Source of the DNA: Leptospira sp.
GTDB lineage: Bacteria > Spirochaetota > Leptospiria > Leptospirales > Leptospiraceae
DNA length: 64,000 nt
Assembly (NCBI GenBank): GCA_034439575.1
Contig: JAWXAQ010000015.1
Coordinates: 32,001-96,000 of the forward strand
Reading direction: 5' to 3'
This document shows, in pieces, positions 1,714-56,282 of the stretch (its first letter is position 1; each line of letters opens with the position of its first letter). The notes under the pieces are model-generated. The model was not told the DNA's origin and made no database searches. It was given only the letters and a program-made list of their open reading frames with translations. The position numbers and the translations under genes are program-made.

Positions 1714-3570
1714 CTAATTCTTTAATCCATATACTTTCATTGAAAATTCTTTTCCTCTGATTTCCATTTCGCCCAATGGAGAAAGCGTCAATTTGTTCTC
1801 TTGCGAAAGTTTTTCATATGCCACTTCGCTCAGTAGAATTGGCGAATTTACCTCTTTCGTTTTCCCTTCTAACCTAGAAGCTGTATTTACTGTATCTCCG
1901 ATCAATGTTCCATCCATCCTAGACTCTTGGCCAATGGTTCCGATCAAAACTTTGCCATAATGAATTCCGATACCGATTTTTATTTCGGTTTCGCCTGCCT
2001 CTATTCTTTTTTTATTGAATTCACTCAATCCGATTAACATATCATTGGCGGCACTCAAAGCATTGTCCGAAGATTTTGGGAAAAATGCCATTATCGAATC
2101 ACCAATGTATTTATCGATGTATCCTGATTTTCTTTCAATGGATGGCGCAGTAAATCTCATAAACGCATTTAAAAAATCAAAAGTGAGCCGCGGTGTTAGT
2201 TTTTCTGAAATAGATGTAAATCCCCTAATGTCCAAAAACAAAACTGCCACTTCTCCATCCACTGCGTCACCTAACTGTACTTCCCTTACATCTGACTTGT
2301 TTAATAACGGAATGATTTGAGAAGGAAAAAATCTAGAAAACGAATCTGTTAAACTACGTTGTTCTTCCAAAGATTTAATTTGGAGTGCTGCTTTTTCTTT
2401 CTGAATGATATTGATTCGATCTGCCAAAGATAGGGATAAAAATATTGCTTCAAATACAGAACCAAATTGGAGTGAGTAGTTTGTAAAAAAGTGATATGGT
2501 AAAATTCCGAAATTTCTAAGTCCTACGATTACAGCCCCGATCAAAACAATGAATGAACCTAACAAAAAGAATCGAGCTTGTTCATATCCTTTTGTCCATG
2601 CGTATGATGAAATAAGAAATAAAGTTACTGACGAAACGAGCGTTAATATAAGTCCAATAGATATAGAAATTCTATAATAACCAAAAAATGCGGGAAGTAT
2701 AATCATTGCACTGAGTATAGCAATTGTTTTGAGATAAACATTTAATCTTGGCATTCGTTCTCTGGCTTCCACAAATTTGCCAGCAAACAATACGGCGAAT
2801 GTATTTACTAGACCGATTGAAATTGGAAACGAATAATCTGCTAACTTTGGATATTCGGGGAATATATATGCATGCGTATAACCCCATATACCTGATTGCA
2901 CAAAACTTAGGAAAAATATGTATAGAATATAATACAAATAACTTCTATCTCTAATACTTAAGTACAAAAATAAATTGTAAAAGAAAACGACTCCCATCAC
3001 TCCGAAATAAGCTCCGAAGAGAGTTGTTTTTAAACTCTCCTCCTCTAAGTAAGAATTCTTTTCCCAAAGTGTAAGTGGAAGCAATAAAGAACCTTGGCTT
3101 TCAAAACGAAAAATCAAAGTGTAAACTTTTTCTTTTTCCAAAGAAACATCAAAAATGAAATTTCTATGTTTCAAAAATCTTTCTGTAATAGCTAACTTTC
3201 TACCTGTAAACAATTTAGCGACGATTTGGTTATCTTTCAGAGTATAAAAATCTATAGAATCAATCAAAGAAACTAATTCCAACCAGAGGCTTTGGTCTTT
3301 GCCAGATTTGATTGTCCATTTCAACCAGAAGGCAGAACTAGAATATCCAAAGCCGATAGACTCACCTAAATTTTTTTTCCCTTCCCCATTCTCAAATTTT
3401 TTTAGTATAGTATCCAATGATTCTGATTTCGATTTGTCTTCTATGTATTCTACATAGGTCGCTAAATTGAGTTTTGATTCATTTCCAGTCCATTCGATAA
3501 TGGGATTCGCGATTAAATTATGAGAGTAAAGAATAAATAATGAAATAAAGTAAAAATAATTTTTCAACAT
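1714..3570 (-). CDS. 7TM-DISM sensor class III adenylate cyclase
   Basis: Signal peptide, DISM extracellular domain (GFGYSSSAFWL), 7 TM helices; cyclase motifs LFLDIRGFT, DKYIGDSIM, GDTVNTASRLE. Confidence 0.9.
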   Translation of the reverse strand: MLKNYFYFISLFILYSHNLIANPIIEWTGNESKLNLATYVEYIEDKSKSESLDTILKKFENGEGKKNLGESIGFGYSSSAFWLKWTIKSGKDQSLWLELVSLIDSIDFYTLKDNQIVAKLFTGRKLAITERFLKHRNFIFDVSLEKEKVYTLIFRFESQGSLLLPLTLWEKNSYLEEESLKTTLFGAYFGVMGVVFFYNLFLYLSIRDRSYLYYILYIFFLSFVQSGIWGYTHAYIFPEYPKLADYSFPISIGLVNTFAVLFAGKFVEARERMPRLNVYLKTIAILSAMIILPAFFGYYRISISIGLILTLVSSVTLFLISSYAWTKGYEQARFFLLGSFIVLIGAVIVGLRNFGILPYHFFTNYSLQFGSVFEAIFLSLSLADRINIIQKEKAALQIKSLEEQRSLTDSFSRFFPSQIIPLLNKSDVREVQLGDAVDGEVAVLFLDIRGFTSISEKLTPRLTFDFLNAFMRFTAPSIERKSGYIDKYIGDSIMAFFPKSSDNALSAANDMLIGLSEFNKKRIEAGETEIKIGIGIHYGKVLIGTIGQESRMDGTLIGDTVNTASRLEGKTKEVNSPILLSEVAYEKLSQENKLTLSPLGEMEIRGKEFSMKVYGLKN

Positions 3571-31568: not shown

Positions 31569-31925
31569 TCACAAATCTTCCGCATCCAACTGAAAACCTT
31601 CAAGCGCAGAGGAAAGATCAGGAAAAATTTCAAATACTTTATCAAGCATAGTTATTTCGAATAATTGAATCAGATCTTCATCGACAACTATGACTTTAAT
31701 ATCACCACTCATCGGTTTTAACTTACGCTTGGTGGCAACAAATATGCCCAAGGCGGTAGAACAAATATGATGAACCTTTGTTAGGTCGAGGATAATTTTT
31801 TTAACTGAAGATTGTGTCAGTTTAGAGAGTTCCTTCTCTATCTCATCAGAATCGACTTTTAAAATCGCACCTGAAAACTTCACGATTCTAATATCATTTT
31901 TGATCTGAACTTCCATTCGATTCAA
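31569..31925 (-). CDS. STAS domain anti-sigma-factor antagonist
   Basis: IILDLTKVHHICSTALG, LFEITMLDKVFEIF. Confidence 0.9.
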   Translation of the reverse strand: MNRMEVQIKNDIRIVKFSGAILKVDSDEIEKELSKLTQSSVKKIILDLTKVHHICSTALGIFVATKRKLKPMSGDIKVIVVDEDLIQLFEITMLDKVFEIFPDLSSALEGFQLDAEDL

Positions 31926-42214: not shown

Positions 42215-42817
42215 TTAGAAATACTTTACGCCTTCAAACCCGAGTTCTGGGAGAATTCGTGTAACAATGTCACCCATTGTAAAAGCAAAAAGTAGAGCCA
42301 AAAATCCAAAAGCGGATAGGAAAATCACACGATTGAGCATGTTATCATACTTTAAGTGCATAAAGTAAGCTAATACGAAAAATGCTTTAACGGATGCAAC
42401 TGCCATAGCTACGACCATATTTAGTTTCCCTAAGTCCACATAAGAAACTAACACAGTGATTACGGTTCCAACAAAAAGGATTCCTAAAATGACAGCGTAA
42501 GTAAAAATAGAAATCACATGATGATCATGTTCCTCTTCTTCTTCACCGTCACCATCTTCCACCCACATCGAAGCAGAAGCATGGTCTTCTTTATGATCTT
42601 CTTCACCTAAAACAAACTTCAGGACTTTATTGTCTTTGTTTTGTTCTTTGAATTGGTTGAACCTGTCTGTTTGGAAGAATTGAGAAACCCAGTTCCAAAT
42701 AAATCCACCAATGGTGGCAGTCGCAATACCGGGAGCAAAAATCCCAAATCCCAAAATGGGAGTGAACACTGCCACTAGGGCAATAAAATAAAGTCCGTAA
42801 TTGATAACGTATTCCAT
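42215..42817 (-). CDS. ctaF: Cytochrome c oxidase subunit IV family with N-terminal extension
   Basis: ASVKAFFVLAYFMHLKYD; last gene of the cox operon. Confidence 0.8.
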   Translation of the reverse strand: MEYVINYGLYFIALVAVFTPILGFGIFAPGIATATIGGFIWNWVSQFFQTDRFNQFKEQNKDNKVLKFVLGEEDHKEDHASASMWVEDGDGEEEEEHDHHVISIFTYAVILGILFVGTVITVLVSYVDLGKLNMVVAMAVASVKAFFVLAYFMHLKYDNMLNRVIFLSAFGFLALLFAFTMGDIVTRILPELGFEGVKYF

Positions 42818-42829
42818 AATACTTTCCTT

Positions 42830-43603
42830 TTAACCGACCAAATAAAGTAGAGGGAAGAGGTAAATCCACACAAGGTCGACCACGTGCCAGAATAGACCGA
42901 CACCTTCGACAACTGTATAGTATTCTGGTCCCACTTTTCTTCTAAGTGTTTTGATAAAGATCCAGAAGATCAAAATAATTCCCGCAACCACGTGGACTCC
43001 GTGAAGACCTGTCATTACGAAATAAAAACCGTAGAACATTTCCCATTTTGGTCTGGAAATGATGGCTTTTAGTTTTACAGCTTCTTCCGGTGAAACATGA
43101 TTTGCTTCCATCGCCTTTGGATCTTTTAATAAAGCTGCGATTTTTGTTTCGCAAGTATCTCTTTTTCCACCAGCGGCACAAGACGGATCAACGAGCGAAA
43201 ATTTTCCAGGAATCGTTCCTACGTGAATTTTGTGTGAATATTCAAAGTATTTAATAACCATGAACACACTGGCACAAGCAATCGTTAACGCTAACATAAT
43301 GGCCGCTATTTTGTGCAGTCCTCTTTGGACGTAACTAATCGCAGCTGCCATAGTAAATGAACTGATAAGTAAAACGACTGTGTTTACTGCGCCGAACACC
43401 TTGTTCAATGATTCCGAACCATTTTTGAAAACGGAAGGGTAAAGAGAATGATAAATAAGGTAACCTACGAATAGACCACCAAACATAAGTATCTCTGTGC
43501 AAAGGAATAGCCAAATCCCTTGTTTGGAAGAGGCATATTGATGTTCAGCACTCTTAAAATGGTGCTCGTGGTGAAATTCACTTGTAGAACTAACGGAAGT
43601 CAT
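42830..43603 (-). CDS. ctaE: Cytochrome c oxidase subunit III
   Basis: GIWLFLCTEILMFGGLF, MTGLHGVHV, FWHVVDLVWIYLFPLLY. Confidence 0.93.
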   Translation of the reverse strand: MTSVSSTSEFHHEHHFKSAEHQYASSKQGIWLFLCTEILMFGGLFVGYLIYHSLYPSVFKNGSESLNKVFGAVNTVVLLISSFTMAAAISYVQRGLHKIAAIMLALTIACASVFMVIKYFEYSHKIHVGTIPGKFSLVDPSCAAGGKRDTCETKIAALLKDPKAMEANHVSPEEAVKLKAIISRPKWEMFYGFYFVMTGLHGVHVVAGIILIFWIFIKTLRRKVGPEYYTVVEGVGLFWHVVDLVWIYLFPLLYLVG

Positions 43604-45212
43604 ATGGGCCTGCAGTAACTTTTGGTGTTTCTAGAAAATTTTCATGAGGAGGAGGAGAAGCGGTCTGCCATTCGAGCGTTTTTGCACCCCAAGGGTTCGC
43701 AGATGCTTTTTCGCCAGCAATCATTCCGTGAATGATTGTCACAAGACCTACTAAAAAACCAAGTCCGATCAACCAAGATCCAACTGTGGAGATTTGATTT
43801 AAGTTTGTGTATTCAGGTAAGTAATCAAAGTATCTTCTTGGCATTCCCATCGCACCGAGTATGAATTGTGGGAAAAAGGTAACATTAAATCCAGTGAAAA
43901 TCAATACCCAAGAAATTCGTCCACCAAGGTCAGATGTCATACGTCCAAACATCTTTGGGAACCAATAATAAATACCACCCATAAGGGCCATTAGAGTTCC
44001 ACCTACCATTACGTAATGGAAGTGAGCTACAACAAAGTAAGTGTCATGAAAATGAACATCCATACCAGTAGATGCTAGCATAACGCCTGTCAAACCACCG
44101 ATAGTAAAGAGGAACATAAATCCTATGGCGAATAACATGGGTGCTTCAAAAGAAACCGTTCCACGATACATGGTTGATATCCAATTGAAAAGTTTGATCG
44201 CTGTTGGAACACCCACTAACATCGTGATTACCGAAAATAGAATGCCCGCAAAAGTAGATTGTCCAGAAACAAACATGTGGTGTCCCCAAACAAGAAACGA
44301 TACTGCGGCAATGGCTACAGATGAATAAGCAATCGCTCGGTAGCCGAAAATTGTTTTCTTAGAGAAAGCAGTGATAAGTTCCGAAATCACACCCATCGCA
44401 GGAAGGATCATAATATAAACCGCAGGGTGAGAATAAAACCAGAAGAAATGTTGGAAAAGAACTGGGTCTCCGCCTAGATCTGGATCAAAAATTCCAATGC
44501 CTAAAGTTTTTTCCATCGCAAGTAAAAGTAGAGTAATCGCAAGGATAGGAGTCGCAAGGATTTGGATGATAGAAGTGGAGTAAAGTGCCCAAATCATTAA
44601 GGGAATTCGATCCATTGTCATACCAGGTGCTCGTAATTTGTGAGTCGTTACGATAAAGTTTAGCCCAGTTAAAATTGAGGAAAAGCCCATAGTAAAGGCT
44701 CCCATCACAAGTAGGATAACTCCATTTCCCGTTTTCGCCGTGGAATATGGGGTATAAAAAGTCCAGCCAGTATCTACTTGGTTGAAATACATTGAGGAAG
44801 CCGCTAATGCCGCACCAGCAATAAAGATATAATAGGAAAAAAGATTCAATCGCGGGAACGCTACATCTTTAGCACCTAGTTGAAGGGGAAGGATAAAGTT
44901 TCCTAAAAACGCGGGTATTCCTGGAATAATTACCATAAATACCATGATGGCACCGTGAAATGTCATGAATTTATTATAAGTATCTGGTTCCAACAGCGGG
45001 GTAGAACCAAATTTTGCCAGGTGCAAACGAATGCCCAAGGCAAAAAATCCACCTATCAAGAACAAAGTGGCTACTGTTGCAAAATACATAAGACCTATTC
45101 GTTTGTGGTCACGTGTGGTAAGCCAAGACCAAATACCCGGAGTATGATTCAGGTAGTTGTCGCCATGAGTCGCATGACCATGAGCAGTTTTTGTGTTTGC
45201 TGAACTCATCAA
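43590..45212 (-). CDS. ctaD: Cytochrome c oxidase subunit I (A2-type)
   Basis: DHKRIG, GWTFYTP, WFYSHPAVY, VWGHHMF, VVAHFHYV, GMPRRY. Confidence 0.97.
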   Translation of the reverse strand: MMSSANTKTAHGHATHGDNYLNHTPGIWSWLTTRDHKRIGLMYFATVATLFLIGGFFALGIRLHLAKFGSTPLLEPDTYNKFMTFHGAIMVFMVIIPGIPAFLGNFILPLQLGAKDVAFPRLNLFSYYIFIAGAALAASSMYFNQVDTGWTFYTPYSTAKTGNGVILLVMGAFTMGFSSILTGLNFIVTTHKLRAPGMTMDRIPLMIWALYSTSIIQILATPILAITLLLLAMEKTLGIGIFDPDLGGDPVLFQHFFWFYSHPAVYIMILPAMGVISELITAFSKKTIFGYRAIAYSSVAIAAVSFLVWGHHMFVSGQSTFAGILFSVITMLVGVPTAIKLFNWISTMYRGTVSFEAPMLFAIGFMFLFTIGGLTGVMLASTGMDVHFHDTYFVVAHFHYVMVGGTLMALMGGIYYWFPKMFGRMTSDLGGRISWVLIFTGFNVTFFPQFILGAMGMPRRYFDYLPEYTNLNQISTVGSWLIGLGFLVGLVTIIHGMIAGEKASANPWGAKTLEWQTASPPPHENFLETPKVTAGPYDFR

Positions 45213-45220
45213 ATTCTCCT

Positions 45221-46183
45221 CTATTTTATAGTTTTGATATATTCGATTAAATTTTCTATTTCTTCGTCATTTAACTGACCTTGAAATAATGGCATAGCTG
45301 GTGGAAAACCTTCTACAATTTTTGCCGATGAAACTAAGATGGATTCACGAAGGTAATTATCATCTGCCTTTGCAGTTGATCCGTCTGCGAACTTACGATT
45401 GTTTCCATAAAGACCTTTCATTGTTGGACCAACAATTTTTGAACCGTCAATGGAATGACAACTAGCGCAGGCTCTTTGTGCAAAGATCACCTTGCCCTTG
45501 TCAGCAGGCGTATCCGCACCTTTTTTCTCTGCATGATACCAAGCAGCATATTCCTCAGATGGAATCGCTTTGATTTTTATCATCATACCAGAGTGTTTTG
45601 TGCCACAATATTCAGTGCAAAAAACAATGAATTCGCCTGGATGAGTTGGTTCAAACCAAAGTTCCGTGTAACGACCAGGAACAGCGTCTTGTTTCGCACG
45701 GAAAGCAGGGACAAAAAAACTATGAATGACATCTTTGGATGTTAATATCAGTTTGGTGGCTTTTCCAGCGGGTACGATGAGTGGATCGTTTCCTGAGCTG
45801 TAGAATTCTTTACCATTGGCATATTTATAAGTCCATGCCCACTGTTCGCCTGTTACATGAATCTCAGCAGCAATGTCTGTTGGGGGAACTCTTAATTTTT
45901 CAAAAATCACCATGCCCCAATAAAAAATCACCATCATGATGACTAAGGGGATAAATGACCATAAAAACTCAGCAAAGTTGTTGTGAGTGATATAGGCTGA
46001 TTTTTGATCTGCTGTGTTTCGTTTGAATTTAATGAGGAACCATGTCATTCCTCCAATTAAAATCACAAACGAAATTAAACTCGAAATGATAAGAAAGGCG
46101 TAGAGAAGATCTACCTCTTTCGCGATTTCAGTTGCCTGAATCGGCATAAATGTGGTCGCCGGGTAGCTAGTAATCCAAGACAT
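45221..46183 (-). CDS. coxB: Cytochrome c oxidase subunit II with fused cytochrome c (caa3 type)
   Basis: DVIHSF, CuA motif CTEYCGTKHSGM, C-terminal CASCH. Confidence 0.95.
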   Translation of the reverse strand: MSWITSYPATTFMPIQATEIAKEVDLLYAFLIISSLISFVILIGGMTWFLIKFKRNTADQKSAYITHNNFAEFLWSFIPLVIMMVIFYWGMVIFEKLRVPPTDIAAEIHVTGEQWAWTYKYANGKEFYSSGNDPLIVPAGKATKLILTSKDVIHSFFVPAFRAKQDAVPGRYTELWFEPTHPGEFIVFCTEYCGTKHSGMMIKIKAIPSEEYAAWYHAEKKGADTPADKGKVIFAQRACASCHSIDGSKIVGPTMKGLYGNNRKFADGSTAKADDNYLRESILVSSAKIVEGFPPAMPLFQGQLNDEEIENLIEYIKTIK

Positions 46184-47029
46184 CTACAAGACTCCTTGAT
46201 GGTTATTCTTTGAACTTTTTCGCCAGTTAATAAATAAAAACGAGGCAAGTGCAAGGAGAGTAAACCCTGCGCCCATTTGCATTATTCTGTATGCGTATAT
46301 CGTATATTTATTTTTTCGTGGATCAAATTGAAAGCAAAATAAAGCAAAGCGGTCTACAAAACTTCCAATCTTGCCTTCACTTGCTTCCATAAAGGCCAAA
46401 CGTAAATCTCTTTCTCCAAATTGTATGCCTTGAAAGATTCTAGAAACAAATCCATCTGGGGTTAATACGTAGATACCGCTTGCGTGGATGTATTGCTTAG
46501 AAGGTTCATCCCAACGATAACGAAATTCCAATTGTTTTAAAAGCAAATCTATGGATTCGTCTGTACCTGTTAATAAATGAAACCCAGTCTCAGCGCCTGC
46601 CCTGCCATACTCTTTTAAGTAAGCCAGTTTTTTAGGATGAGAAACTTCTTTGGTTTCATTTGGATTAAAGGAAACGGCAATATAAATGAATTCTTTTCCG
46701 GCTGTCCAATCGAGTGCTTTTAATGTTTTCATCACACCGTTCATATGATAATTGCAAAGAGTGGGACATTTGAAATAAACAGGCGAAAGTAAGATTGGTT
46801 TGCCTTTGACAGCGAAATCTTTGAGGTTTACAGGATTTCCATGATCATCAAAAAAATCAATATCCAGATTTACCTTTTTTCCTGTAACATCGGCAAATCC
46901 AATTTCCTTTAAATCTTTAGGAAGTTTGTTGTCTTTGGTTAAATTCTCATGTGGGTCATAAGCAAAAGTTACCATCGGGAATATTAAGAAAATCGAATAT
47001 AGCCACGATCTTGAAAATTTAAATTTCAC
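46184..47029 (-). CDS. SCO family protein of the cox operon
   Basis: YFKCPTLC, VSFNPNE, YIHAS, FCFQFDP, C-terminal TM. Confidence 0.9.
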   Translation of the reverse strand: MKFKFSRSWLYSIFLIFPMVTFAYDPHENLTKDNKLPKDLKEIGFADVTGKKVNLDIDFFDDHGNPVNLKDFAVKGKPILLSPVYFKCPTLCNYHMNGVMKTLKALDWTAGKEFIYIAVSFNPNETKEVSHPKKLAYLKEYGRAGAETGFHLLTGTDESIDLLLKQLEFRYRWDEPSKQYIHASGIYVLTPDGFVSRIFQGIQFGERDLRLAFMEASEGKIGSFVDRFALFCFQFDPRKNKYTIYAYRIMQMGAGFTLLALASFLFINWRKSSKNNHQGVL

Positions 47030-47052
47030 AGTAAAGGTGTAAGTAGTATTTT

Positions 47053-47205
47053 CTATTTACTTTGTGCAGATGGATCGCCAAAGCCAGGGTTTTCGGGAGT
47101 TCCTGGATGAACGAAAGAAATATAAGCAAAAAATAGGATATTGAATGCGAGAGTGATTAAAAAAGTCCAGTATCCACTTTTAATATATAGATCTTGTTTT
47201 GACAT
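47053..47205 (-). CDS. 50-aa single-TM small protein heading the cox operon (absent from the ORF track)
   Basis: Translated by hand: MSKQDLYIKSGYWTFLITLAFNILFFAYISFVHPGTPENPGFGDPSAQSK; GAAGGG upstream; ends 23 bp before the SCO start. Confidence 0.65.
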   Translation of the reverse strand: MSKQDLYIKSGYWTFLITLAFNILFFAYISFVHPGTPENPGFGDPSAQSK

Positions 47206-47337
47206 AATGATGCGCCCTTCTCTTTTTTTAGTCTATGTTATAAGTCCTCCCAAATCTCCAACAATTTTTAGCTTTGTCTAGATTAAAATTATTTTCGCAG
47301 GGCTCACCTCGAGAATTCTAGTGGAAACAGATAAAAG

Positions 47338-48216
47338 ATGAAAATCCAAAGAATCTATTTTATTCTCACAGGCTTAGTTTTATTCAATATGATATTTGGC
47401 CCGCTCGTTCGGGCAACAGATTCTGGTTTGGCATGTCCGGATTGGCCACTTTGCCACGGTAAATTCGTGCCAGAATGGACATTTCATATCTTTATGGAAG
47501 TGGGACATAGATATTATTCAGGGATCTTGGGATTACTTATCCTGGGTGGATTTATAATCATATATAAAGACAAAGAAGCCTCCAAGCAATTGCTGGTTCC
47601 TGGAGTAATTAGCCTACTTTTCCTAATTTCTCAAGTCATACTTGGTGGACTTACCGTCACAAAGTTACTTCACCCAACAACAGTTAATCTTCATTTATTA
47701 AATGCGATATTACTTTTAATCACATGTCTAACGATAGCCCTTATGGCAAAAGAAAATGGCGATTCTAGTTTCGATTCAAAACCCAGAGCAAGGTTTTTAT
47801 TTTTGTTTCTAATTCTATCTATTGTTTACCAAATATTTTTAGGGGGAAAAGTGAGTTCCAATTATGCAGGACTTGCTTGTCCTGATTTTCCTACTTGTTA
47901 CGGATCATGGTTACCTGAGATGGTGGGAACAATTCGGTTTCAAATGGAACACAGATTATTTGGATATATATTGGCACTCATAGTTTTCGGAACTACCACC
48001 TATGCGATTTTTGAACTAAAGAACGAGAAGGTTAAGACTTTTTTAAAAATTGGTTGTTATCTGATTTCTATTCAAATATTACTCGGTGCTTTTAATGTAA
48101 TTTATAAATTACCAAAGCTTTTAACAGGTGTTCATACTCTCAATGCTGTCCTCACTTTACTTGCTTGTTATATCGCAAGTTTTTACCATTTTCGAAAAAT
48201 CAGGACTGAAAAGTAA
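47338..48216 (+). CDS. ctaA: Heme A synthase (COX15/CtaA)
   Basis: GLACPDWPLCHG, EVGHR, ACPDFPTC, MEHR. Confidence 0.92.
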   Translation: MKIQRIYFILTGLVLFNMIFGPLVRATDSGLACPDWPLCHGKFVPEWTFHIFMEVGHRYYSGILGLLILGGFIIIYKDKEASKQLLVPGVISLLFLISQVILGGLTVTKLLHPTTVNLHLLNAILLLITCLTIALMAKENGDSSFDSKPRARFLFLFLILSIVYQIFLGGKVSSNYAGLACPDFPTCYGSWLPEMVGTIRFQMEHRLFGYILALIVFGTTTYAIFELKNEKVKTFLKIGCYLISIQILLGAFNVIYKLPKLLTGVHTLNAVLTLLACYIASFYHFRKIRTEK

Positions 48217-48224
48217 AATCAATC

Positions 48225-49079
48225 ATGTTTAAAACTTGGAACCAGCTAACAAAACCTAGAGTAACGGTGCTCGTTCTTGCAACAGTGTTTCCTGGTTTAT
48301 ATCTAGGTATGTTAGAGACTCCGTCTTTAGCTCTGACACTCATCACTTTATTTGGAACTTATCTCATGAGTTCAGCATCCTTTATTCTAAATCAATACAT
48401 TGAATGGGAAAAAGATTCTGTCATGTACAGAACCAAAAAAAGACCAATACCTGCGGGCATAGTTTCCCCCAAACAAGCATTAATACTTGGTATATTTACG
48501 ATGTTTGCTGCTTTTGGCATATTATTTTATTTTGTAAATTTACTGACAGCACTTGCCGCATGGTCTGCCCTCTTGCTTTATGTATTTTTATATACTATTT
48601 GGTTAAAACCAAGAACCGAACAAAATATAGTCATAGGTGGAATCTCTGGTTGTATCGGACCTTTAATTGGTTATGCGGCCGCGGCGAATGAATTACCTCT
48701 ACCTGCATGGATTTTATTTTTAATGATTTTTCTATGGACTCCCGCGCATTTTTGGGCACTCGCTATCTTTTTAAAAGAGGACTATGAATTTGCAGGGATT
48801 CCTATGATGCCAGTGGTTTCCGGTGTTGACAAAACTGTGCGCCAAATCTTTTTATATTCTCTCGCTTATTCGGCCACTGTGATCGGATTTTATTTTACAG
48901 ACAACCGCATGGGGATCATTTACCTTTCCACATCGATACTATTGACCTTTCTTATTATCGCTTTTGCCTTGAAACTCTTAGTATCCAAAGAACCTATCCT
49001 CGCAAAAAAGTTTTTTTTCTTTAGCATTTTGCATCTTTTTCTAATTAGTATAGTCATCGTAATCGATACCAAAGTATAA
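48225..49079 (+). CDS. cyoE: Heme O synthase (protoheme IX farnesyltransferase)
   Basis: LTKPRV, DSVMYRTKKRPIPAG, YTIWLKPRT, WTPAHFWALA. Confidence 0.93.
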   Translation: MFKTWNQLTKPRVTVLVLATVFPGLYLGMLETPSLALTLITLFGTYLMSSASFILNQYIEWEKDSVMYRTKKRPIPAGIVSPKQALILGIFTMFAAFGILFYFVNLLTALAAWSALLLYVFLYTIWLKPRTEQNIVIGGISGCIGPLIGYAAAANELPLPAWILFLMIFLWTPAHFWALAIFLKEDYEFAGIPMMPVVSGVDKTVRQIFLYSLAYSATVIGFYFTDNRMGIIYLSTSILLTFLIIAFALKLLVSKEPILAKKFFFFSILHLFLISIVIVIDTKV

Positions 49080-50702: not shown

Positions 50703-52802
50703 TTATCGCAAGTAGGATCCTACTTCTAACACGATCAAGGTGACATCGTCTTTCCACTGATGTTTGTTCATCTTTGTAAACAATCCCTCGCTTATAAATT
50801 GGATAATTTCATCTAATGGTAAATTCCGGGATTTTGTTATAAGCTCCATTAACTCTTGCAATGCGGCACTACCATCCATTTCATTGAGTTCTTCAAATAT
50901 TCCATCCGAAAAAAGGAATACACGATCGTTTGTTTCAATTTTCACTTCTTGAAAACCAAATCGAAATTGTTCCAAAATCCCGATAATCGGTCCTGTATTT
51001 TCAAGCAGAATCACTTCTCCACCAGCTTTCTGTAAAACCTGATTTTGCATACCTGCTGCCGCAAAACGCATGATAGATTGAGAAAAATCAAAATCTACAG
51101 CAATGGCAGGAAAATAAATTTGTAAATCTGAATTTTTATCATAAAAATGTTGGTTTAGATAATACAAAAGATCATTTGGTTTTGTAGCGACCATATTCAA
51201 TCTTTCAAATTCTGATTGTATCATCATTGTATATAATGCGGCTTGTAATCCATGCCCAGTCGCATCACAAAGAAACACACGAACATATCCGTCTTGTATT
51301 TTTTTAATAAAAAAGATGTCACCACCTACATCTGCAAGTGGCTGAAACAATGTCCGAATTTCTAAATGGGGATTTAAATGAGGAACCGTCATTAAACCAT
51401 TCACTATACTCTTTGCTAGGCGAAGGTCTTTATTGATCTGATCTAATTTTCCTTGTAATTCGATAGTTTTATCTTTTACCTTCTCTTCCAATTTTTCGTT
51501 TAGATTTGTGAGTTCGTTTCGAACACCTTCCAAATCTGAATTTCTGTCGGATAGTTCTAATGCTAAATTTTCCGCATCGACAAACCCTTTTGAAAAATTA
51601 CGAGCAATCGAAATTGATTGAAAGAAAAACATCGTAAATATTCCATAATGCGCGAGTAAAGGACCAATGATTACAATATTATTCACTAACACGTCATTGA
51701 CAAAAGTAGCAAAAAAGATCAGAAAACTGGATAGAAAAAAAACAGAACCAGGGTGGCCACCACGAATCGCACGAACGACTATGATAAGACAAAATATAGC
51801 GCACGTTAAAGTAAATATTTGATATGGTAACATCAAATAAGTATAAAAAGATGTGCGAGTTAGTATTACGATTGTCGACATTGCAATGCCAAGATTAAAT
51901 ATCAATTTATAAACTAACTTGGGGAAATACGGCTGAAACATTAAATACATGTAACGACAAAAAACTGGCGTAACGAGAAAGAAGGTAAGATAACTTAATT
52001 TAACATGAATTTCAAATTGTAATTGGGGTATAAACATTGTTAGATATTTATTTCCAGTGATAAATACCCGGGAACTTATAAGAATACATGCCAATGCAAA
52101 CCAATAAGTATAAGGATCCTTTTTTCGCTTAAAAAACAAAAAAAGATGATAAACACCCATAAACAAAATGCTACCGACGAGGAGCATGTCTTGAAGGATT
52201 TCTTTTTCAAATTTTGAATGTATAATTTCTGTTCTGCCTACACTAATGATTTGAGCAGGACCACCTTTTCTATGATGGTAATTTGAAATTTGTAATAAAA
52301 GTTCTGATTCATTATTTTCGGGAACAAAATCTACGATGACAGGTCTATATCCAGGTCTCGCATTATTTTCTATAGGCGATACAACTCCATTTTTTGAAAC
52401 AAGTTTTACATCAATAAACAGATTGTAGGCGGTCTCCATTTCTGGAACCTTAAACGAGAGAGGTTGGTTTTTTAAATTATGAATCAGTTTTAATCGAAAT
52501 GTGGCAAATCCATCGGCGGATAAAAATCCACGTTCTAAAAACGGCTTTGACCAAACGCCCGGTATACGAAAGTATTCTGTATTTCCAATGGATTCGATAA
52601 GACTAACATCATTTGGGAATACAATCAATCGGGGATAATAAATCCAATCCCCTTTCAATAAAAGAACAGCCCCTTTATCTTTAAGATAATTGGAGGCATC
52701 TAAATTTCCAGTAATGGCCTCAGGAGGTAAAACTAATTTACCACAAGATAAGAAGATAAAAAGAAACGAAAGAGTAGATATCAGCCTTTTGAATAATACC
52801 AT
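50703..52802 (-). CDS. 7TM-DISM sensor PP2C/SpoIIE (RsbU-like) phosphatase
   Basis: Extracellular domain (QISNYHHRKGG), 7TM, coiled coil; VGGDIF, CDATGHG, FSDG, DDVTL intact. Confidence 0.9.
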   Translation of the reverse strand: MVLFKRLISTLSFLFIFLSCGKLVLPPEAITGNLDASNYLKDKGAVLLLKGDWIYYPRLIVFPNDVSLIESIGNTEYFRIPGVWSKPFLERGFLSADGFATFRLKLIHNLKNQPLSFKVPEMETAYNLFIDVKLVSKNGVVSPIENNARPGYRPVIVDFVPENNESELLLQISNYHHRKGGPAQIISVGRTEIIHSKFEKEILQDMLLVGSILFMGVYHLFLFFKRKKDPYTYWFALACILISSRVFITGNKYLTMFIPQLQFEIHVKLSYLTFFLVTPVFCRYMYLMFQPYFPKLVYKLIFNLGIAMSTIVILTRTSFYTYLMLPYQIFTLTCAIFCLIIVVRAIRGGHPGSVFFLSSFLIFFATFVNDVLVNNIVIIGPLLAHYGIFTMFFFQSISIARNFSKGFVDAENLALELSDRNSDLEGVRNELTNLNEKLEEKVKDKTIELQGKLDQINKDLRLAKSIVNGLMTVPHLNPHLEIRTLFQPLADVGGDIFFIKKIQDGYVRVFLCDATGHGLQAALYTMMIQSEFERLNMVATKPNDLLYYLNQHFYDKNSDLQIYFPAIAVDFDFSQSIMRFAAAGMQNQVLQKAGGEVILLENTGPIIGILEQFRFGFQEVKIETNDRVFLFSDGIFEELNEMDGSAALQELMELITKSRNLPLDEIIQFISEGLFTKMNKHQWKDDVTLIVLEVGSYLR

Positions 52803-52822
52803 ACTCTTCCTTTTCGTTTTAT

Positions 52823-54103
52823 TTAAATACGACTTTGCATCGGAATGTATTTACGTTGGTTTTCGCCTACGTATATCTGCTTCGGTCTTACTTTACTAAA
52901 ATCACCTTTTTTTCTTTGTTCTTTCCAATGAGCAAGCCAACCAGGCAATCGTCCTATCACTTGCATGACCGAAAACATAGTCTTCGGAATCCCTAAAGTA
53001 TGGAAGGCCAAACCCGAATAGTATTCTAAATTTGGATAGAGAAGATTATCAATAAAATATTGATCATTCCAAACAAGTTCATCAATTTTTAAAGCTGTTT
53101 CTTCTATCGCATCCAATTTTCTATTTTTGTAGAATTCTTGTACGATACCTCGTGCTACTTTTGCCCTAGGACTCACCACATCGTACGCTTTTTGACCAAA
53201 TCCATTGGATGATAATTTGGCTTCGCCGGTTTTAAATCTTTCGAAGTAATCTTTAACGGGTGTTTTTGATCGAATGATGTCTTCTATCAATTCAATGGCG
53301 GCTGTAGGTCTACCACCTTCTCTCGCACCCCATTGTGCCATAATACCAGCAGAAATACAGGCAAACAAATTTGCTTTTGTAGAACCTACCACCTGTACGG
53401 CGGTATTGGATACGTTTTGTTCGTGGTCGGCATGAAGAATCCAAAATTGATTTAATAATTTATCGAAGCCGTCTGGTACATCATACTGTTTGGCGGGAAC
53501 TGAATGCATCATATGTAAAAAATTTGTACAATAAGGATTTTTATCCAATGGATAAACAAAAGGATGGCCAACAGAATGTTTATAAGTAAATGCGGCGATG
53601 GTCCTTATCTTTGCAAGTAATCGTGCAATGAGATCAACGCCCATATCCAATTTTTCTTCGTAATCTTCTTGGTAATAACTGGAGAGCGATGTTACCATAA
53701 CAGAGAGTACAGCAAGTGGATTGGCAACACCAGGAAATCCATCAAATAAATTTAACATATCTTCGTGAATCATTGAATGTTTTGAAAGGCGGCCAGAAAA
53801 ATCACTTAGCTCTTTTTTATTTGGAAGATCACCATAAATTAAAAGGTAAGATGTTTCTACAAATGTAGATTGGTGTGCAAGCTCTATTACGTCATATCCG
53901 CGATAGGTGAGCTCACCTTTATCAGGATCTCGCCTTGATACTTTTGATAATCCTAAGGCAGTATTGAATAATCCTTGGTCTATGGTAACTAAACCCGTTT
54001 TTCTATAAAAGTCAGTGAGATCGATTCCTTCTTTTCCATCTGTTCCAATAACAATGGGAAACTGGTATGCCTTACCTTTGATGTGGATATCCACTTGGTT
54101 CAT
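52823..54103 (-). CDS. Citrate synthase (GltA type II) paralogue with substituted catalytic residues
   Basis: GELTYRGY, LHADHEQN, GWLAHW and RPKQIY conserved; WGAREGG, GFGQKAY and YPNLEYYSG replace the canonical HGG, GFGH and NVDF motifs. Confidence 0.85.
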   Translation of the reverse strand: MNQVDIHIKGKAYQFPIVIGTDGKEGIDLTDFYRKTGLVTIDQGLFNTALGLSKVSRRDPDKGELTYRGYDVIELAHQSTFVETSYLLIYGDLPNKKELSDFSGRLSKHSMIHEDMLNLFDGFPGVANPLAVLSVMVTSLSSYYQEDYEEKLDMGVDLIARLLAKIRTIAAFTYKHSVGHPFVYPLDKNPYCTNFLHMMHSVPAKQYDVPDGFDKLLNQFWILHADHEQNVSNTAVQVVGSTKANLFACISAGIMAQWGAREGGRPTAAIELIEDIIRSKTPVKDYFERFKTGEAKLSSNGFGQKAYDVVSPRAKVARGIVQEFYKNRKLDAIEETALKIDELVWNDQYFIDNLLYPNLEYYSGLAFHTLGIPKTMFSVMQVIGRLPGWLAHWKEQRKKGDFSKVRPKQIYVGENQRKYIPMQSRI

Positions 54104-54158
54104 TCGAAAACCTCTCTACCACAATACTCAGGAAGGGAAGTTAAGAATCTAGAAGAAT

Positions 54159-54509
54159 TTAAGATTGGGTGATAGCAGAATCGAGAGAATCGTGAATCAA
54201 AACAAAGTCAGTGAGTCCCACAATATCCATAACTTTACGGAAATGATTGTTTAGGCCTGCGAATTCGATTTTGCCATGACTTTCAGATGATTTTGTAATC
54301 AAACTGATAAGAGTAGCTATGCCCGCAGAATTGATATAAGAAGTGTCTGTGAAATTCAAGATGACACGAGATTTTTTATCCGTAGGAATCGATTCGTAAG
54401 ACTGTACGATTTCATCTTCGGCTTCGGATGTGATCTCACCAGCAATATGAATCACAGGAAGAGCTCCTCCATTTTCAAATCCAAGACGAATTTTAAATTC
54501 CTCGATCAT
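54159..54509 (-). CDS. STAS domain anti-sigma-factor antagonist (RsbV-like)
   Basis: VILNFTDTSYINSAGIATL with phosphoacceptor Ser; VMDIVGL. Confidence 0.9.
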   Translation of the reverse strand: MIEEFKIRLGFENGGALPVIHIAGEITSEAEDEIVQSYESIPTDKKSRVILNFTDTSYINSAGIATLISLITKSSESHGKIEFAGLNNHFRKVMDIVGLTDFVLIHDSLDSAITQS

Positions 54510-54551
54510 TTGCTTCCAGGGAAATCGTTCAGAGAGAGGGGTCAATCAAAA

Positions 54552-54773
54552 TTAGCCCTTACTTTTTCTTTCTTCTTTCGAAAGTCTTCCAAAGGGTTGT
54601 TTGCAAGTGCGACATACATAATATATATCAATTGGTGAAGCAGAGATACCAATCAATCCCATCGCAATCATTCCCCAAGTAGAGTATTTCACTACTTTTC
54701 TGGCATTTTCAGAATCACGTGTAGTGCCACAGTCACAGGATACTCGATCGGCTTTTTTTAATTGGGAGGTCAT
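54552..54773 (-). CDS. Small Cys-rich protein with hydrophobic insert (zinc-ribbon-like)
   Basis: CDCG..WGMIAMGLIGIS..CRTC. Confidence 0.65.
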   Translation of the reverse strand: MTSQLKKADRVSCDCGTTRDSENARKVVKYSTWGMIAMGLIGISASPIDIYYVCRTCKQPFGRLSKEERKSKG

Positions 54774-54830
54774 AAAGTCAGCTTCCGATCCCACTCGAAA
54801 AAAACGAGTAAGATCGGATAGAAAGAAAAT

Positions 54831-55232
54831 TTAATTTTTTCCGAGATGTTCTACGTATTTTGCTAAAACAGGAATATCATTTCCTAAGTGTTTGTAAGCA
54901 ACCATAGGAGATCCTTTGATCCCTTCATTAAGTGTTTTTGTAATACCTGCAATGGTGTTTCCATTTTTCCATTCTGAAGAAGGAGCTTTGAAATTTCTAG
55001 GTTTTGGGTTGAGGGCAGCTGCAGCAGCACCGTCTCCACCACCTTTTTCACCGTGGCAAGATGCACAATTTTGTAAAAAGATTTCTTCGCCGCGAGCGAG
55101 TTCAGGATCTACAGTAACTGCAGGTGCAGTTTCAGTTGTAGTAGTTTCAGCAGGTTTGTCACCGCCACATGCAATCATAGTGAGTGCAAGTGCAACAACA
55201 GATATAGAAATTAAGAGTTTGTTCAATTTCAT
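54831..55232 (-). CDS. Monoheme cytochrome c lipoprotein
   Basis: GGAG RBS, lipobox MIAC, NCASCHG, PKPRNF, GSPM axial Met. Confidence 0.9.
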   Translation of the reverse strand: MKLNKLLISISVVALALTMIACGGDKPAETTTTETAPAVTVDPELARGEEIFLQNCASCHGEKGGGDGAAAAALNPKPRNFKAPSSEWKNGNTIAGITKTLNEGIKGSPMVAYKHLGNDIPVLAKYVEHLGKN

Positions 55233-55296
55233 TTCTCTCTCCAAAGTAATGGTTACTTCCAATGAATTGTCACAGAAGTGTTTTGGCGAGAAGATT

Positions 55297-56211
55297 TCAG
55301 GATTTGCCCAAGAGATTTCGTAAGGCTTCACTGAGATTTTGAAACTGAAACTCATAACCTTCTTCTAGAAGTCTCTTAGGTGCAATGTATTGGCCTTCCG
55401 TAATCACTTGAGCTCCCTCTCCATATAATGCTTGTATAGCGATCGCAGGGATTTTGAAAATGGCTGGGCGAAAAAGTGTTTGTGCAAGTTGTTTAGAGAA
55501 TTCAAAATTACTGCAAGGATTTGGAGATACAATATTATAAGATCCTTCGGCAGATCTCTTGGTTAACAAATACAAGGTGGAAGATACAAAATCTCCGATA
55601 TGTATCCAACTAATTCCTTGTTCGCCTGTGGCAATTGGTCCACCTACACCAAATTGAAACGGAGGAATCATCTTTTCTAAGGCACCACCCTTTGGTGATA
55701 GGACGATGCCTGTGCGTAATACTATGACTCTGATGCCTTTTTCTTTGAGGGGCTCGACTTCTTTTTCCCAATCTACACAAATGGAAGCTAAAAAATCCGA
55801 GCCAGGGACTTGGGTTTCATCATATGGTGCATGTCTTGAAGCAGACATACCGTAATATCCTACGGCGGATCCTTGCAAAAAAACTTTTGGTGGGTTTTTA
55901 CAATCGCGGATCCTTGCAACTAGACCCCGAGTAAAATCTATTCGTGAAATACGAATTAAATGTTTTCTTTCATTTGTCCACCGAACACCCGCTATTGGTT
56001 CACCAACTAAATTGATCATGGCATCTAGTCCTTCCAATTGTTGGGAAGTGGGAATTGTCGTGGTGACCAGTTCGATTTCTGAAAATTGTTTTAAATCATT
56101 TGGTAGTTCTGTTCTGCGTGAAAAAACTCTAAATTGGTGACCACGTTTAATCCAATACGGGATAAGCTCACTACCGATTAAACCTGTGCCACCGAGTATG
56201 CCAATTTTCAT
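55297..56211 (-). CDS. TIGR01777/YfcH family NAD-dependent epimerase-like oxidoreductase
   Basis: GGTGLIG, INLVGEPIA..RWT, SAVGYYG, RTGIVL, SWIHI. Confidence 0.92.
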   Translation of the reverse strand: MKIGILGGTGLIGSELIPYWIKRGHQFRVFSRRTELPNDLKQFSEIELVTTTIPTSQQLEGLDAMINLVGEPIAGVRWTNERKHLIRISRIDFTRGLVARIRDCKNPPKVFLQGSAVGYYGMSASRHAPYDETQVPGSDFLASICVDWEKEVEPLKEKGIRVIVLRTGIVLSPKGGALEKMIPPFQFGVGGPIATGEQGISWIHIGDFVSSTLYLLTKRSAEGSYNIVSPNPCSNFEFSKQLAQTLFRPAIFKIPAIAIQALYGEGAQVITEGQYIAPKRLLEEGYEFQFQNLSEALRNLLGKS

Positions 56212-56282
56212 ATGTCTAGTTTCCAATCAGAAAGAAAAAAGAAGTAGAACTTTTTAGGAGAGAATCAATATTTTTAGAATTC

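Follow-up and report, generated by a model that had tools for sequence, protein, structure and literature searches.

Citrate synthase relies on three catalytic residues, His264, His305 and Asp362 in the numbering of the Escherichia coli enzyme. STAS proteins and PP2C phosphatases are components of partner-switching systems such as RsbU-RsbV-RsbW and SpoIIE-SpoIIAA-SpoIIAB, and the SiaABC pathway of Pseudomonas aeruginosa is said to be a further case. A regulatory use of a citrate synthase has been described in Caulobacter crescentus: according to the available text of that report, the active citrate synthase CitA controls the G1-to-S transition independently of catalysis, engineered dead variants (H303A/W) keep this cell-cycle function, and CitC, a paralogue of CitA, failed to complement a gltA mutant of E. 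coli (PMC7083601). The locus analyzed here lies in a 64-kb window (the whole stretch of DNA under analysis) of the Leptospira sp. contig JAWXAQ010000015.1, where a gene for a citrate synthase-like (CS-like) paralogue is placed between a STAS gene and the gene of a membrane phosphatase. An earlier reading made from the sequence only (the sequence-only reading) had proposed an inactive citrate synthase acting in a partner-switch system that links metabolic status to sigma-factor control. The prediction that the paralogue cannot perform the textbook citrate synthase reaction was found to be well supported by its residues. Its role is probably that of a sensor or regulator rather than that of an enzyme, and tentatively the paralogue could be regarded as a ligand-binding subunit without catalysis, linked to membrane signalling and descended from a type II (GltA-type) citrate synthase. 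In the following, g1 denotes the genus of the source genome, g13 its sister genus, f1 the family and f2 the sister family.

Catalytic positions and conservation of the paralogue

The CS-like gene (52823–54103, minus strand) encodes a protein of 426 amino acids (aa) with a type II citrate synthase fold, as seen from its open reading frame (ORF) and from the Pfam search. The match to Citrate_synt (PF00285, 335.1 bits) covers positions 1–356 of the 357 in the profile and places the protein in the citrate synthase superfamily, and comparison with the solved structure 7e8n (E = 1e-109) showed full-length homology with no large indels. The reading frame has neither frameshifts nor internal stops, and the motifs LHADHEQN, SPRA, IGR and RPKQ are retained, in agreement with the full-length GltA homologue described in the sequence-only reading. 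In the alignment with E. coli K-12 GltA, the segments WGAREGG, GFGQKAY and YPNLEY fall on WGPAHGG, GFGHRVY and YPNVDF, respectively. Literature positions of E. coli GltA equal the gene position minus one, as confirmed on E. coli K-12 gltA, and on this numbering His264, His305 and Asp362 are replaced by Glu262, Gln304 and Glu360 of the paralogue. The same three replacements were found in the alignments to the solved citrate synthases 7e8n and 4tvm, bearing out the earlier observation that all three catalytic positions differ, and the Glu/Gln/Glu triad was invariant in 25 of 25 g1 loci. In the available part of the Caulobacter study, replacement of the E. coli GltA histidine at gene position 306 (literature His305) impaired activity, and CitA variants H303A/W, altered at the equivalent histidine, failed to complement an E. 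coli gltA deletion (PMC7083601).

The profile scores point in the same direction. The paralogue was under the cut-off of all 19 NCBIfam equivalog models listed; the citrate synthase models NF004126 and TIGR01798 gave 421 bits against a cut-off of 505 (the best) and 373 against 485, and the 2-methylcitrate synthase models TIGR01800 and NF009006, for which the triad is also absent, gave 241.9 against 421.3 and 201.3 against 550 bits. The source genome carries a second citrate synthase on another contig (464 bits) with fully canonical motifs.

An orthologue of the paralogue was present in all 24 other g1 genomes first sampled (83–92% identity), each accompanied by a canonical copy (∼43%). Family f1 contained it in 114 of 114 genomes from 14 genera (53–92% identity), one copy being cut at residue 274, apparently by the contig end, and the sister family f2 in 16 of 16 genomes at 44–50% identity. 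A separate canonical gltA, left as a point to check by the sequence-only reading, was present alongside the paralogue in every genome examined. The ratio of non-synonymous to synonymous substitution (dN/dS) was estimated by the Nei-Gojobori method from 21 g1 genomes (4 of the 25 were omitted, their canonical gltA not having been fetched), and only pairs with dS of 0.05–1.5 were used. The median pairwise dN/dS was 0.017 for the paralogue (64 of 210 pairs usable) versus 0.021 for canonical gltA (113 of 210), 0.022 for STAS (92 pairs), 0.052 for a small Cys-rich ORF (108 pairs) and 0.063 for the first 492 codons of the phosphatase (27 pairs), ratios that are approximate because the median dS was near 0.86. 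The paralogue is plainly under strong purifying selection, with no decay. Its substitutions are not private to the strain and its linkage is conserved throughout g1, findings under which the pseudoenzyme proposed earlier still stands.

Among the 120 best database hits, position 264 was Glu in 93 and Asp in 2, and the other 25 were fully canonical at ∼45–49% identity. The named hits with Glu or Asp at this position belonged to Leptospira, Leptospiraceae, Leptonema or an unclassified spirochaete, and to no others. A quick, unrooted maximum-likelihood tree was built from 62 rows (25 clade members, 14 canonical Leptospirales sequences, E. coli GltA and 22 hand-picked full-length database proteins). 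It placed the paralogue clade on a single branch (Shimodaira-Hasegawa-like approximate likelihood ratio test, SH-aLRT, 100) 0.82 changes per site long, with an inner branching that mirrors that of canonical gltA; in this rootless tree the clade fell beside non-Leptospirales canonical sequences with only 83% support, and the paralogue may have arisen either by duplication within the order or by transfer. The best explanation is that the paralogue has been inherited vertically since before the split of the two sampled Leptospirales families. A search of representatives at 50% identity returned no close clade representative; its best match was 41% identical and most of the 150 matches were canonical. 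Two database proteins, P0121 and P0124 (40–41% identity), share Tyr226, Arg383 and Lys387 and have Arg or Asp at position 264. In the quick tree they fall within the f2 part of the clade, on long branches, and hence the clade may extend beyond the sampling.

The residue signature of the clade was studied by aligning 24 of its members, drawn from 15 genera, with E. coli GltA and the canonical enzyme of the source genome. Position 264 was Glu in 24 of 24 clade sequences, so that this part of the Glu/Gln/Glu pattern holds clade-wide, but most members keep His305, the exceptions being g1 and g13, which alone have Gln, and g15, which has Glu. At position 362 Glu predominates over Asp, and position 306 varies. 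His226, which is residue 224 of the paralogue and was counted in the sequence-only reading as retained, is indeed found in g1 but in g1 alone, all other clade members having Tyr. The His226 of g1 appears to be a reversion, in the same lineage that lost His305. Phe383 is replaced by Gln in f1 and by Arg in f2, and Arg387 by Lys except in g1 and g13. Arg314, Arg407 and His229 are retained in 24 of 24 sequences and Asn232 in 23 of 24, with Ser in one f2 sequence.

Comparison of 26 canonical with 21 clade sequences (12 near-identical g1 rows dropped) gave 155 columns that the canonical enzymes conserve; the clade retains 87 of them, and nearly all of its members are altered at 29. The altered columns include H226Y, H264E, F383Q/R and R387K, and R299, R306, N310, R355 and K356 are now variable. 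The replacement residues are conserved, with Glu264 in 21 of 21, Tyr226 in 20 of 21 and Ala307 in 19 of 21 clade sequences. The block LSKHSMIHE (E. coli residues 109–115) is nearly invariant, R163 and K167 are also conserved, and Arg406 of the paralogue, equivalent to E. coli Arg407, was invariant in a 33-row alignment (A1). Several of the basic residues that have become variable are presumably ligands of the coenzyme A (CoA) phosphates, and R314, R387 and R407 are taken to be ligands of the substrate carboxylates. We further assume that the 109–115 block, with R163 and K167, forms part of the NADH site of type II citrate synthases, that this block stands at the regulatory and oligomer interface of the E. 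coli enzyme, and that Arg407 reaches the active site of the partner subunit. If the CoA and carboxylate roles are right, the clade would have abandoned the acetyl-CoA site and kept the carboxylate site.

Neighbours of the paralogue: 7TMR-DISM proteins, STAS and cytochrome c

The gene following the paralogue (50703–52802, minus strand) encodes the membrane phosphatase, a protein of 699 aa with an extracellular N-terminal region, a seven-transmembrane (7TM) block of the 7TMR-DISM type (residues 205–400) and a SpoIIE/PP2C domain (residues 504–694). Pfam gave 74.2 bits for PF07695 (7TMR-DISM_7TM) over residues 205–400 and 123.7 bits for PF07228 (SpoIIE), and no DISMED ectodomain family was matched at E ≤ 0.1. 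The GGD, DATGHG, SDG and DDVT segments align with those of the solved structures 3eq2 and 6k4e, which assigns the protein by segments to the SpoIIE/PP2C phosphatases and is in agreement with the intact motifs noted earlier. Of the other 40 g1 genomes, 39 have an orthologue of 56–66% identity that always adjoins the paralogue (40 of 41 including the source genome).

The canonical gltA of the source genome is followed, on the same strand, by a 7TMR-DISMED2/7TM/SpoIIE phosphatase (L085:4009–6030, the same gene as G000:C33), which is only 28% identical to the window phosphatase, over the PP2C domain alone. Of the other 40 g1 genomes, 38 contain this phosphatase. Both coordinates were listed for 25 genomes, and in 24 of these it adjoins canonical gltA; in the exception, G022, the two genes are on different short contigs. 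Outside g1, the gene after canonical gltA (13 loci) was a PUA/SAM methyltransferase in 7 and another gene in 6. Origin of the two arrangements by segmental duplication of a gltA–phosphatase pair was considered and rejected, the phosphatases being 28% identical in PP2C alone and neither being found beside a citrate synthase gene outside g1.

In f2, a one-strand array consisting of a 7TMR-DISM/HATPase_c gene, a gene for a 7TMR-DISM-like protein and the paralogue was found in 10 of 16 genomes, which are spread over 5 of the 9 genera (L048, L049, L051, L052, L101, L104 and L106–L109). The genes are directly adjacent in g2 (4 of 4), g9 and g10, separated by one intervening gene in g4 and by 0.7–1.7 kb in g5 (3 of 3); the array is absent in g3 (3 genomes), g6, g7 and g8. 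The middle protein is only 25–55% identical across genera, and the array is therefore old; in a profile search of solved structures its ectodomain resembled the GH2 sugar-binding domain. Assignment of this middle protein as a histidine kinase, to which its kinase-like consensus helix LDDILELSRLE had pointed, was rejected, as Pfam at E ≤ 0.1 and the profile search of solved structures gave no support; the ectodomain alone was matched, and no output domain was recognised. Three separate adjacencies of a citrate synthase fold with 7TMR-DISM proteins, namely the g1 paralogue, the g1 canonical gltA and the f2 array, make a notable recurrence, and the link to 7TMR-DISM receptors is a more interesting lead than the partner-switch/sigma-factor model. 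No neighbour of the paralogue conserved across f1 was found, nor any conserved metabolic gene neighbours. In g16, a 691-aa multi-PAS protein is encoded 23 bp downstream of the CS-like gene on the same strand (L039:2900–4975).

The STAS protein is encoded upstream of the paralogue by an ORF of 128 aa (54159–54545, minus strand). In 3 of 25 g1 loci (L004, L005 and L007) stops occur within the first 12 codons of this frame, so that translation probably starts from the conserved Met at 54509 and yields a protein of 116 aa. The Pfam STAS match (PF01740) reached 46.7 bits, and TIGR00377 reached 45.3 bits, under its cut-off of 53.45. Profile matches to 4hyl, TM1442 and SpoIIAA were obtained, and the invariant segment YINSAGIATL places INSAG on the MDSAG of TM1442; its serine is presumably the phosphosite. 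The STAS domain together with a serine in the conserved phosphorylation segment assigns the protein to the SpoIIAA/RsbV type of anti-sigma-factor antagonists, as the RsbV-like label of the sequence-only reading had implied. Its mean column identity is 80%. A single orthologue (61–92% identity) was found in 111 of 114 f1 genomes, other STAS paralogues being at most 37% identical, and the genomes without it (G041, G057 and G059) are among the less complete assemblies of the set. Among five f2 genomes, the best matches were 49%, 41% and 38% identical in three and ∼30% identical in the remaining two. The STAS gene adjoins the paralogue in 41 of 41 g1 and 5 of 5 g13 genomes, at a spacing of 55 bp in the source genome and 7–10 bp in g13.

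The STAS gene also closes a unit of NAD-epimerase/DUF1731, cytochrome c, (small Cys protein) and STAS genes that spans positions 54159–56226 and is conserved across f1. Where STAS is not linked to the paralogue, the NAD-epimerase/DUF1731 gene was also found in 4 of 11 loci and a weak homologue of the small Cys protein in 3 of 11. As the unit recurs at unlinked loci, its ancestral form is taken to be epimerase, cytochrome c, (small protein) and STAS, to the end of which the paralogue was added once. The small Cys-rich ORF (54552–54794, minus strand; ∼73 aa from the conserved Met at 54773) carries two cysteine pairs, C-x-C and C-x-x-C, with a hydrophobic stretch between them. All 25 g1 loci compared conserve it, and weak homologues lie between cytochrome c and STAS in g21/g22; no Pfam family matched it. 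Position 54773, the end coordinate given in the sequence-only reading, is the likely ATG of this separate ORF and lies outside the STAS gene. The cytochrome c ORF (54831–55355, minus strand, 174 aa) was identified by Pfam, and translation probably begins at the Met of MKLNKLL near 55232, after which comes a lipoprotein-like signal.

Transcription on the minus strand would run from cytochrome c through the small Cys-rich ORF, STAS and the CS-like paralogue to the membrane phosphatase. The ORF coordinates confirm the one-strand order and the gaps given earlier, 55 bp from STAS to the CS-like gene and 20 bp from there to the phosphatase. No terminator-like site was found in either gap, and a scan for sigma-70-like promoters gave 14 sites versus a mean of 19.9 in shuffled sequence, i.e., fewer than in the shuffled sequence. 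Eight RNA runs contained ≤0.18 of the stretch, and the four that were assembled yielded short contigs from close relatives only; in these four, at sparse coverage, no transcript contig bridged the STAS/CS-like or the CS-like/phosphatase junction. The surroundings are respiratory, with SCO1, COX2, COX1, COX3, COX4, CtaA and heme O synthase genes at 42218–49076. Elsewhere in the window, a further 7TMR-DISMED2/7TM receptor with an adenylate/guanylate cyclase output domain is encoded at 1717–3570 (minus strand), and a second, unrelated STAS gene lies at 31572–31925 (minus strand) between phosphoribosyltransferase-like and Ham1-family genes.

Proposed function and competing explanations

As a subunit of a signalling pathway, the paralogue would no longer bind acetyl-CoA and would still bind a di- or tricarboxylate of the oxaloacetate/citrate class, possibly also NADH, and binding of the ligand would report the metabolic state to signalling proteins. 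In g1, it would probably be co-transcribed with the conserved phosphorylatable STAS protein, which it may bind, and with the 7TMR-DISM PP2C phosphatase, which would set the phosphorylation state of STAS. In f2, it would be coupled instead to the 7TMR-DISM pair, one member of which has a histidine-kinase ATPase domain.

The possible contact with STAS was modelled with two paralogue copies (33-row alignment) and one STAS (26-row alignment). The docking score was 0.57 (runs of 0.57, 0.31 and 0.58), compared with 0.01 for the best of three controls; the runs share at least 86% of their contacts, and the partner had a predicted local distance difference test (pLDDT) value of at least 82. In a calibration from which the 2+1 chain layout and the alignments made here differ, 116 of 157 solved complexes reached the docking mark, as did 2 of 215 mismatched pairs; at scores ≤0.60 it was reached by only 18 of the 157 solved complexes and by both of the passing mismatches. 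No solved citrate synthase–STAS complex is known to us, and a pass owing to a memorised structure hence seems unlikely. The structure-prediction check suggested by the sequence-only reading came out in favour of STAS over the controls, with weak support, and the docking is a lead and not a demonstration.

Several observations weigh against a signalling role. The docking pass lies in a band of the calibration where most passes would be false unless the pairing had good prior odds. The predicted inactivity and ligand binding are drawn from residues, and the roles of the CoA-site and NADH-site residues are presumed. Only part of the STAS–PP2C synteny extends beyond the genus: it holds for STAS in 41 of 41 and for the phosphatase in 40 of 41 g1 genomes, but the STAS adjacency is confined to g1 and g13 and the phosphatase orthologues to g1, with best matches outside g1 of ≤33%, the level of the source genome's own paralogues. 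The phosphatase evolves fast (dN/dS 0.063). The STAS–paralogue adjacency is one evolutionary event, in the ancestor of g1 and g13; other f1 genera have the two genes tens of kb to Mb apart, and the STAS neighbour at the unlinked loci (L074–L084) is the same cytochrome c in 10 of 11. Further, 6 of 16 f2 genomes and most f1 genera have no signalling neighbour. The source genome gave 31 matches to 7TMR-DISM and ∼57 first-look candidates for the whole phosphatase query; because these genes are so many, chance adjacency is likelier and single adjacencies are not rare.

The partner-switch model was supported only in part. The association with STAS and the phosphatase is real and lineage-specific, but it is not the core context of the paralogue, and the partner gene of STAS is cytochrome c. 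A scan of the 56 further ORFs of the window (E ≤ 1e-6) revealed no RsbW-type/HATPase_c_2 STAS kinase, no anti-sigma factor and no sigma factor, the window being the extent of this search, and an unlinked kinase may exist elsewhere in the genome; within these 64 kb the locus is without the cognate serine kinase/anti-sigma factor and target sigma factor of a partner-switching system. Sigma-factor control, as proposed from the sequence, is not indicated by anything found.

Of the competing explanations, the one that survives best is a non-catalytic paralogue unrelated to its neighbours, which would form mixed dimers or hexamers that tune or inhibit active GltA, or act as a scaffold, its adjacency to signalling genes being a historical accident. 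The paralogue occurs order-wide, its neighbours differ by genus with none family-wide, and canonical gltA is present in every paralogue-bearing genome. The conserved Arg407, presumed to reach the active site of the partner subunit, and the nearly invariant 109–115 block, presumed to be a regulatory/oligomer interface, would also fit. However, three separate adjacencies with 7TMR-DISM proteins are hard to put down to chance, the tight STAS spacing is kept across 46 genomes (g1 and g13), and the docking with STAS, a weak pass, speaks for contact with a neighbour. On balance, we consider this explanation rather less than probable.

It is unlikely, but conceivable, that the paralogue is a neofunctionalised enzyme whose remodelled pocket (Glu264, Tyr226, Glu/Asp362 and Gln/Arg383) catalyses another carboxylate reaction without acetyl-CoA. 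The invariant Glu264, together with Tyr226, could equally mark a new active site, which again tells against a signalling role. The replacements, Ala307 among them, are conserved and not random, the dN/dS is as low as that of the core enzyme, and the carboxylate-binding arginines are kept. Against this, the clade can dispense with His305 and alternates between Glu and Asp at position 362, a pattern seldom expected of a fixed catalytic set; conserved metabolic gene neighbours are lacking, and a literature search found no member of the citrate synthase family described as having these residues.

An ordinary, weak or specialised citrate/2-methylcitrate synthase, as the sources naming it 'citrate synthase' or 'citrate/2-methylcitrate synthase' annotate it, is highly improbable: Asp362 to Glu preserves the carboxylate and His305 is kept in most clade members, yet His264 is lost in every member, all three catalytic positions differ in g1, the scores lie under all NCBIfam equivalog cut-offs, canonical gltA is present in every genome, and, in the available text of the Caulobacter report, changing just the His305 equivalent is enough to abolish complementation (PMC7083601).

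Returning to the paralogue as a ligand-binding signalling subunit, a wider and more doubtful version may be put forward. The order-wide dead citrate synthases could be the cytoplasmic oxaloacetate/citrate (perhaps NADH) sensing subunit of 7TMR-DISM receptors with lineage-specific outputs, PP2C and the cytochrome c-linked STAS in the saprophytic Leptospira of g1 and the histidine-kinase-type pair in f2. Tricarboxylic acid (TCA) cycle or redox state would then be combined with an extracellular signal, and the active GltA of g1 would be wired to a 7TMR-DISM phosphatase of its own. We regard it as unlikely in this full form.

Comparison with known systems

A full-text literature search yielded no account of a bacterial citrate synthase clade that is inactive by nature, of the Leptospira paralogue or of a citrate synthase–7TMR-DISM link. 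In the available text of a biofilm transcriptome of Leptospira interrogans, one 'citrate synthase', which may be either paralogue, is down-regulated (PMC11442865). Because every source that names the paralogue calls it a (citrate/2-methyl)citrate synthase, metabolic reconstructions of Leptospira, pathogens included, may count a probable non-enzyme. If the present interpretation is true, a dead citrate synthase that is natural, ancient and under strong selection would stand as a clear pseudoenzyme of bacterial central metabolism, going beyond the engineered dead CitA. The repeated 7TMR-DISM pairing offers a testable handle on intracellular sensing by a large, poorly understood receptor class that is abundant in Leptospira, and the pairing of the paralogue could in part account for the large number of orphan STAS and PP2C genes in Leptospira.

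The paralogue has full-length homology to the hexameric, NADH-regulated type II citrate synthases (E. coli GltA; PDB 7e8n, 4tvm and 1nxg), with which it shares R314, R407, H229, N232 and the 109–115 block. Unlike them, it lacks His264 clade-wide and, in g1, also His305 and Asp362; positions 226, 299, 306, 355, 356 and 383 are changed or relaxed, it scores under all equivalog cut-offs, and it forms a separate long-stemmed clade. Similar to partner-switching modules, the locus clusters a single-domain SpoIIAA-type STAS protein bearing the conserved serine segment with a membrane SpoIIE-family PP2C phosphatase. It deviates from them in having no kinase, anti-sigma or sigma gene nearby, in the citrate synthase homologue placed between STAS and phosphatase, and in cytochrome c being the partner gene of STAS. 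With the 7TMR-DISM receptors (PF07695/PF07696), the 7TM block is common to the window phosphatase, the gltA-side phosphatase and the f2 upstream proteins, whereas the literature search found no cytoplasmic metabolic-enzyme homologue as a partner of the receptors reported so far.

The closest parallel is CitA, for which the available text of the report likewise describes a citrate synthase fold used for regulation, a dead variant that keeps this function and a second paralogue that supplies the enzyme activity (PMC7083601). CitA, as described there, is a moonlighting active enzyme of the CtrA circuit whose dead forms were engineered, whereas in the Leptospirales paralogue the loss of the catalytic residues is natural, ancient and order-wide, and its context is that of STAS, PP2C and 7TMR-DISM proteins.

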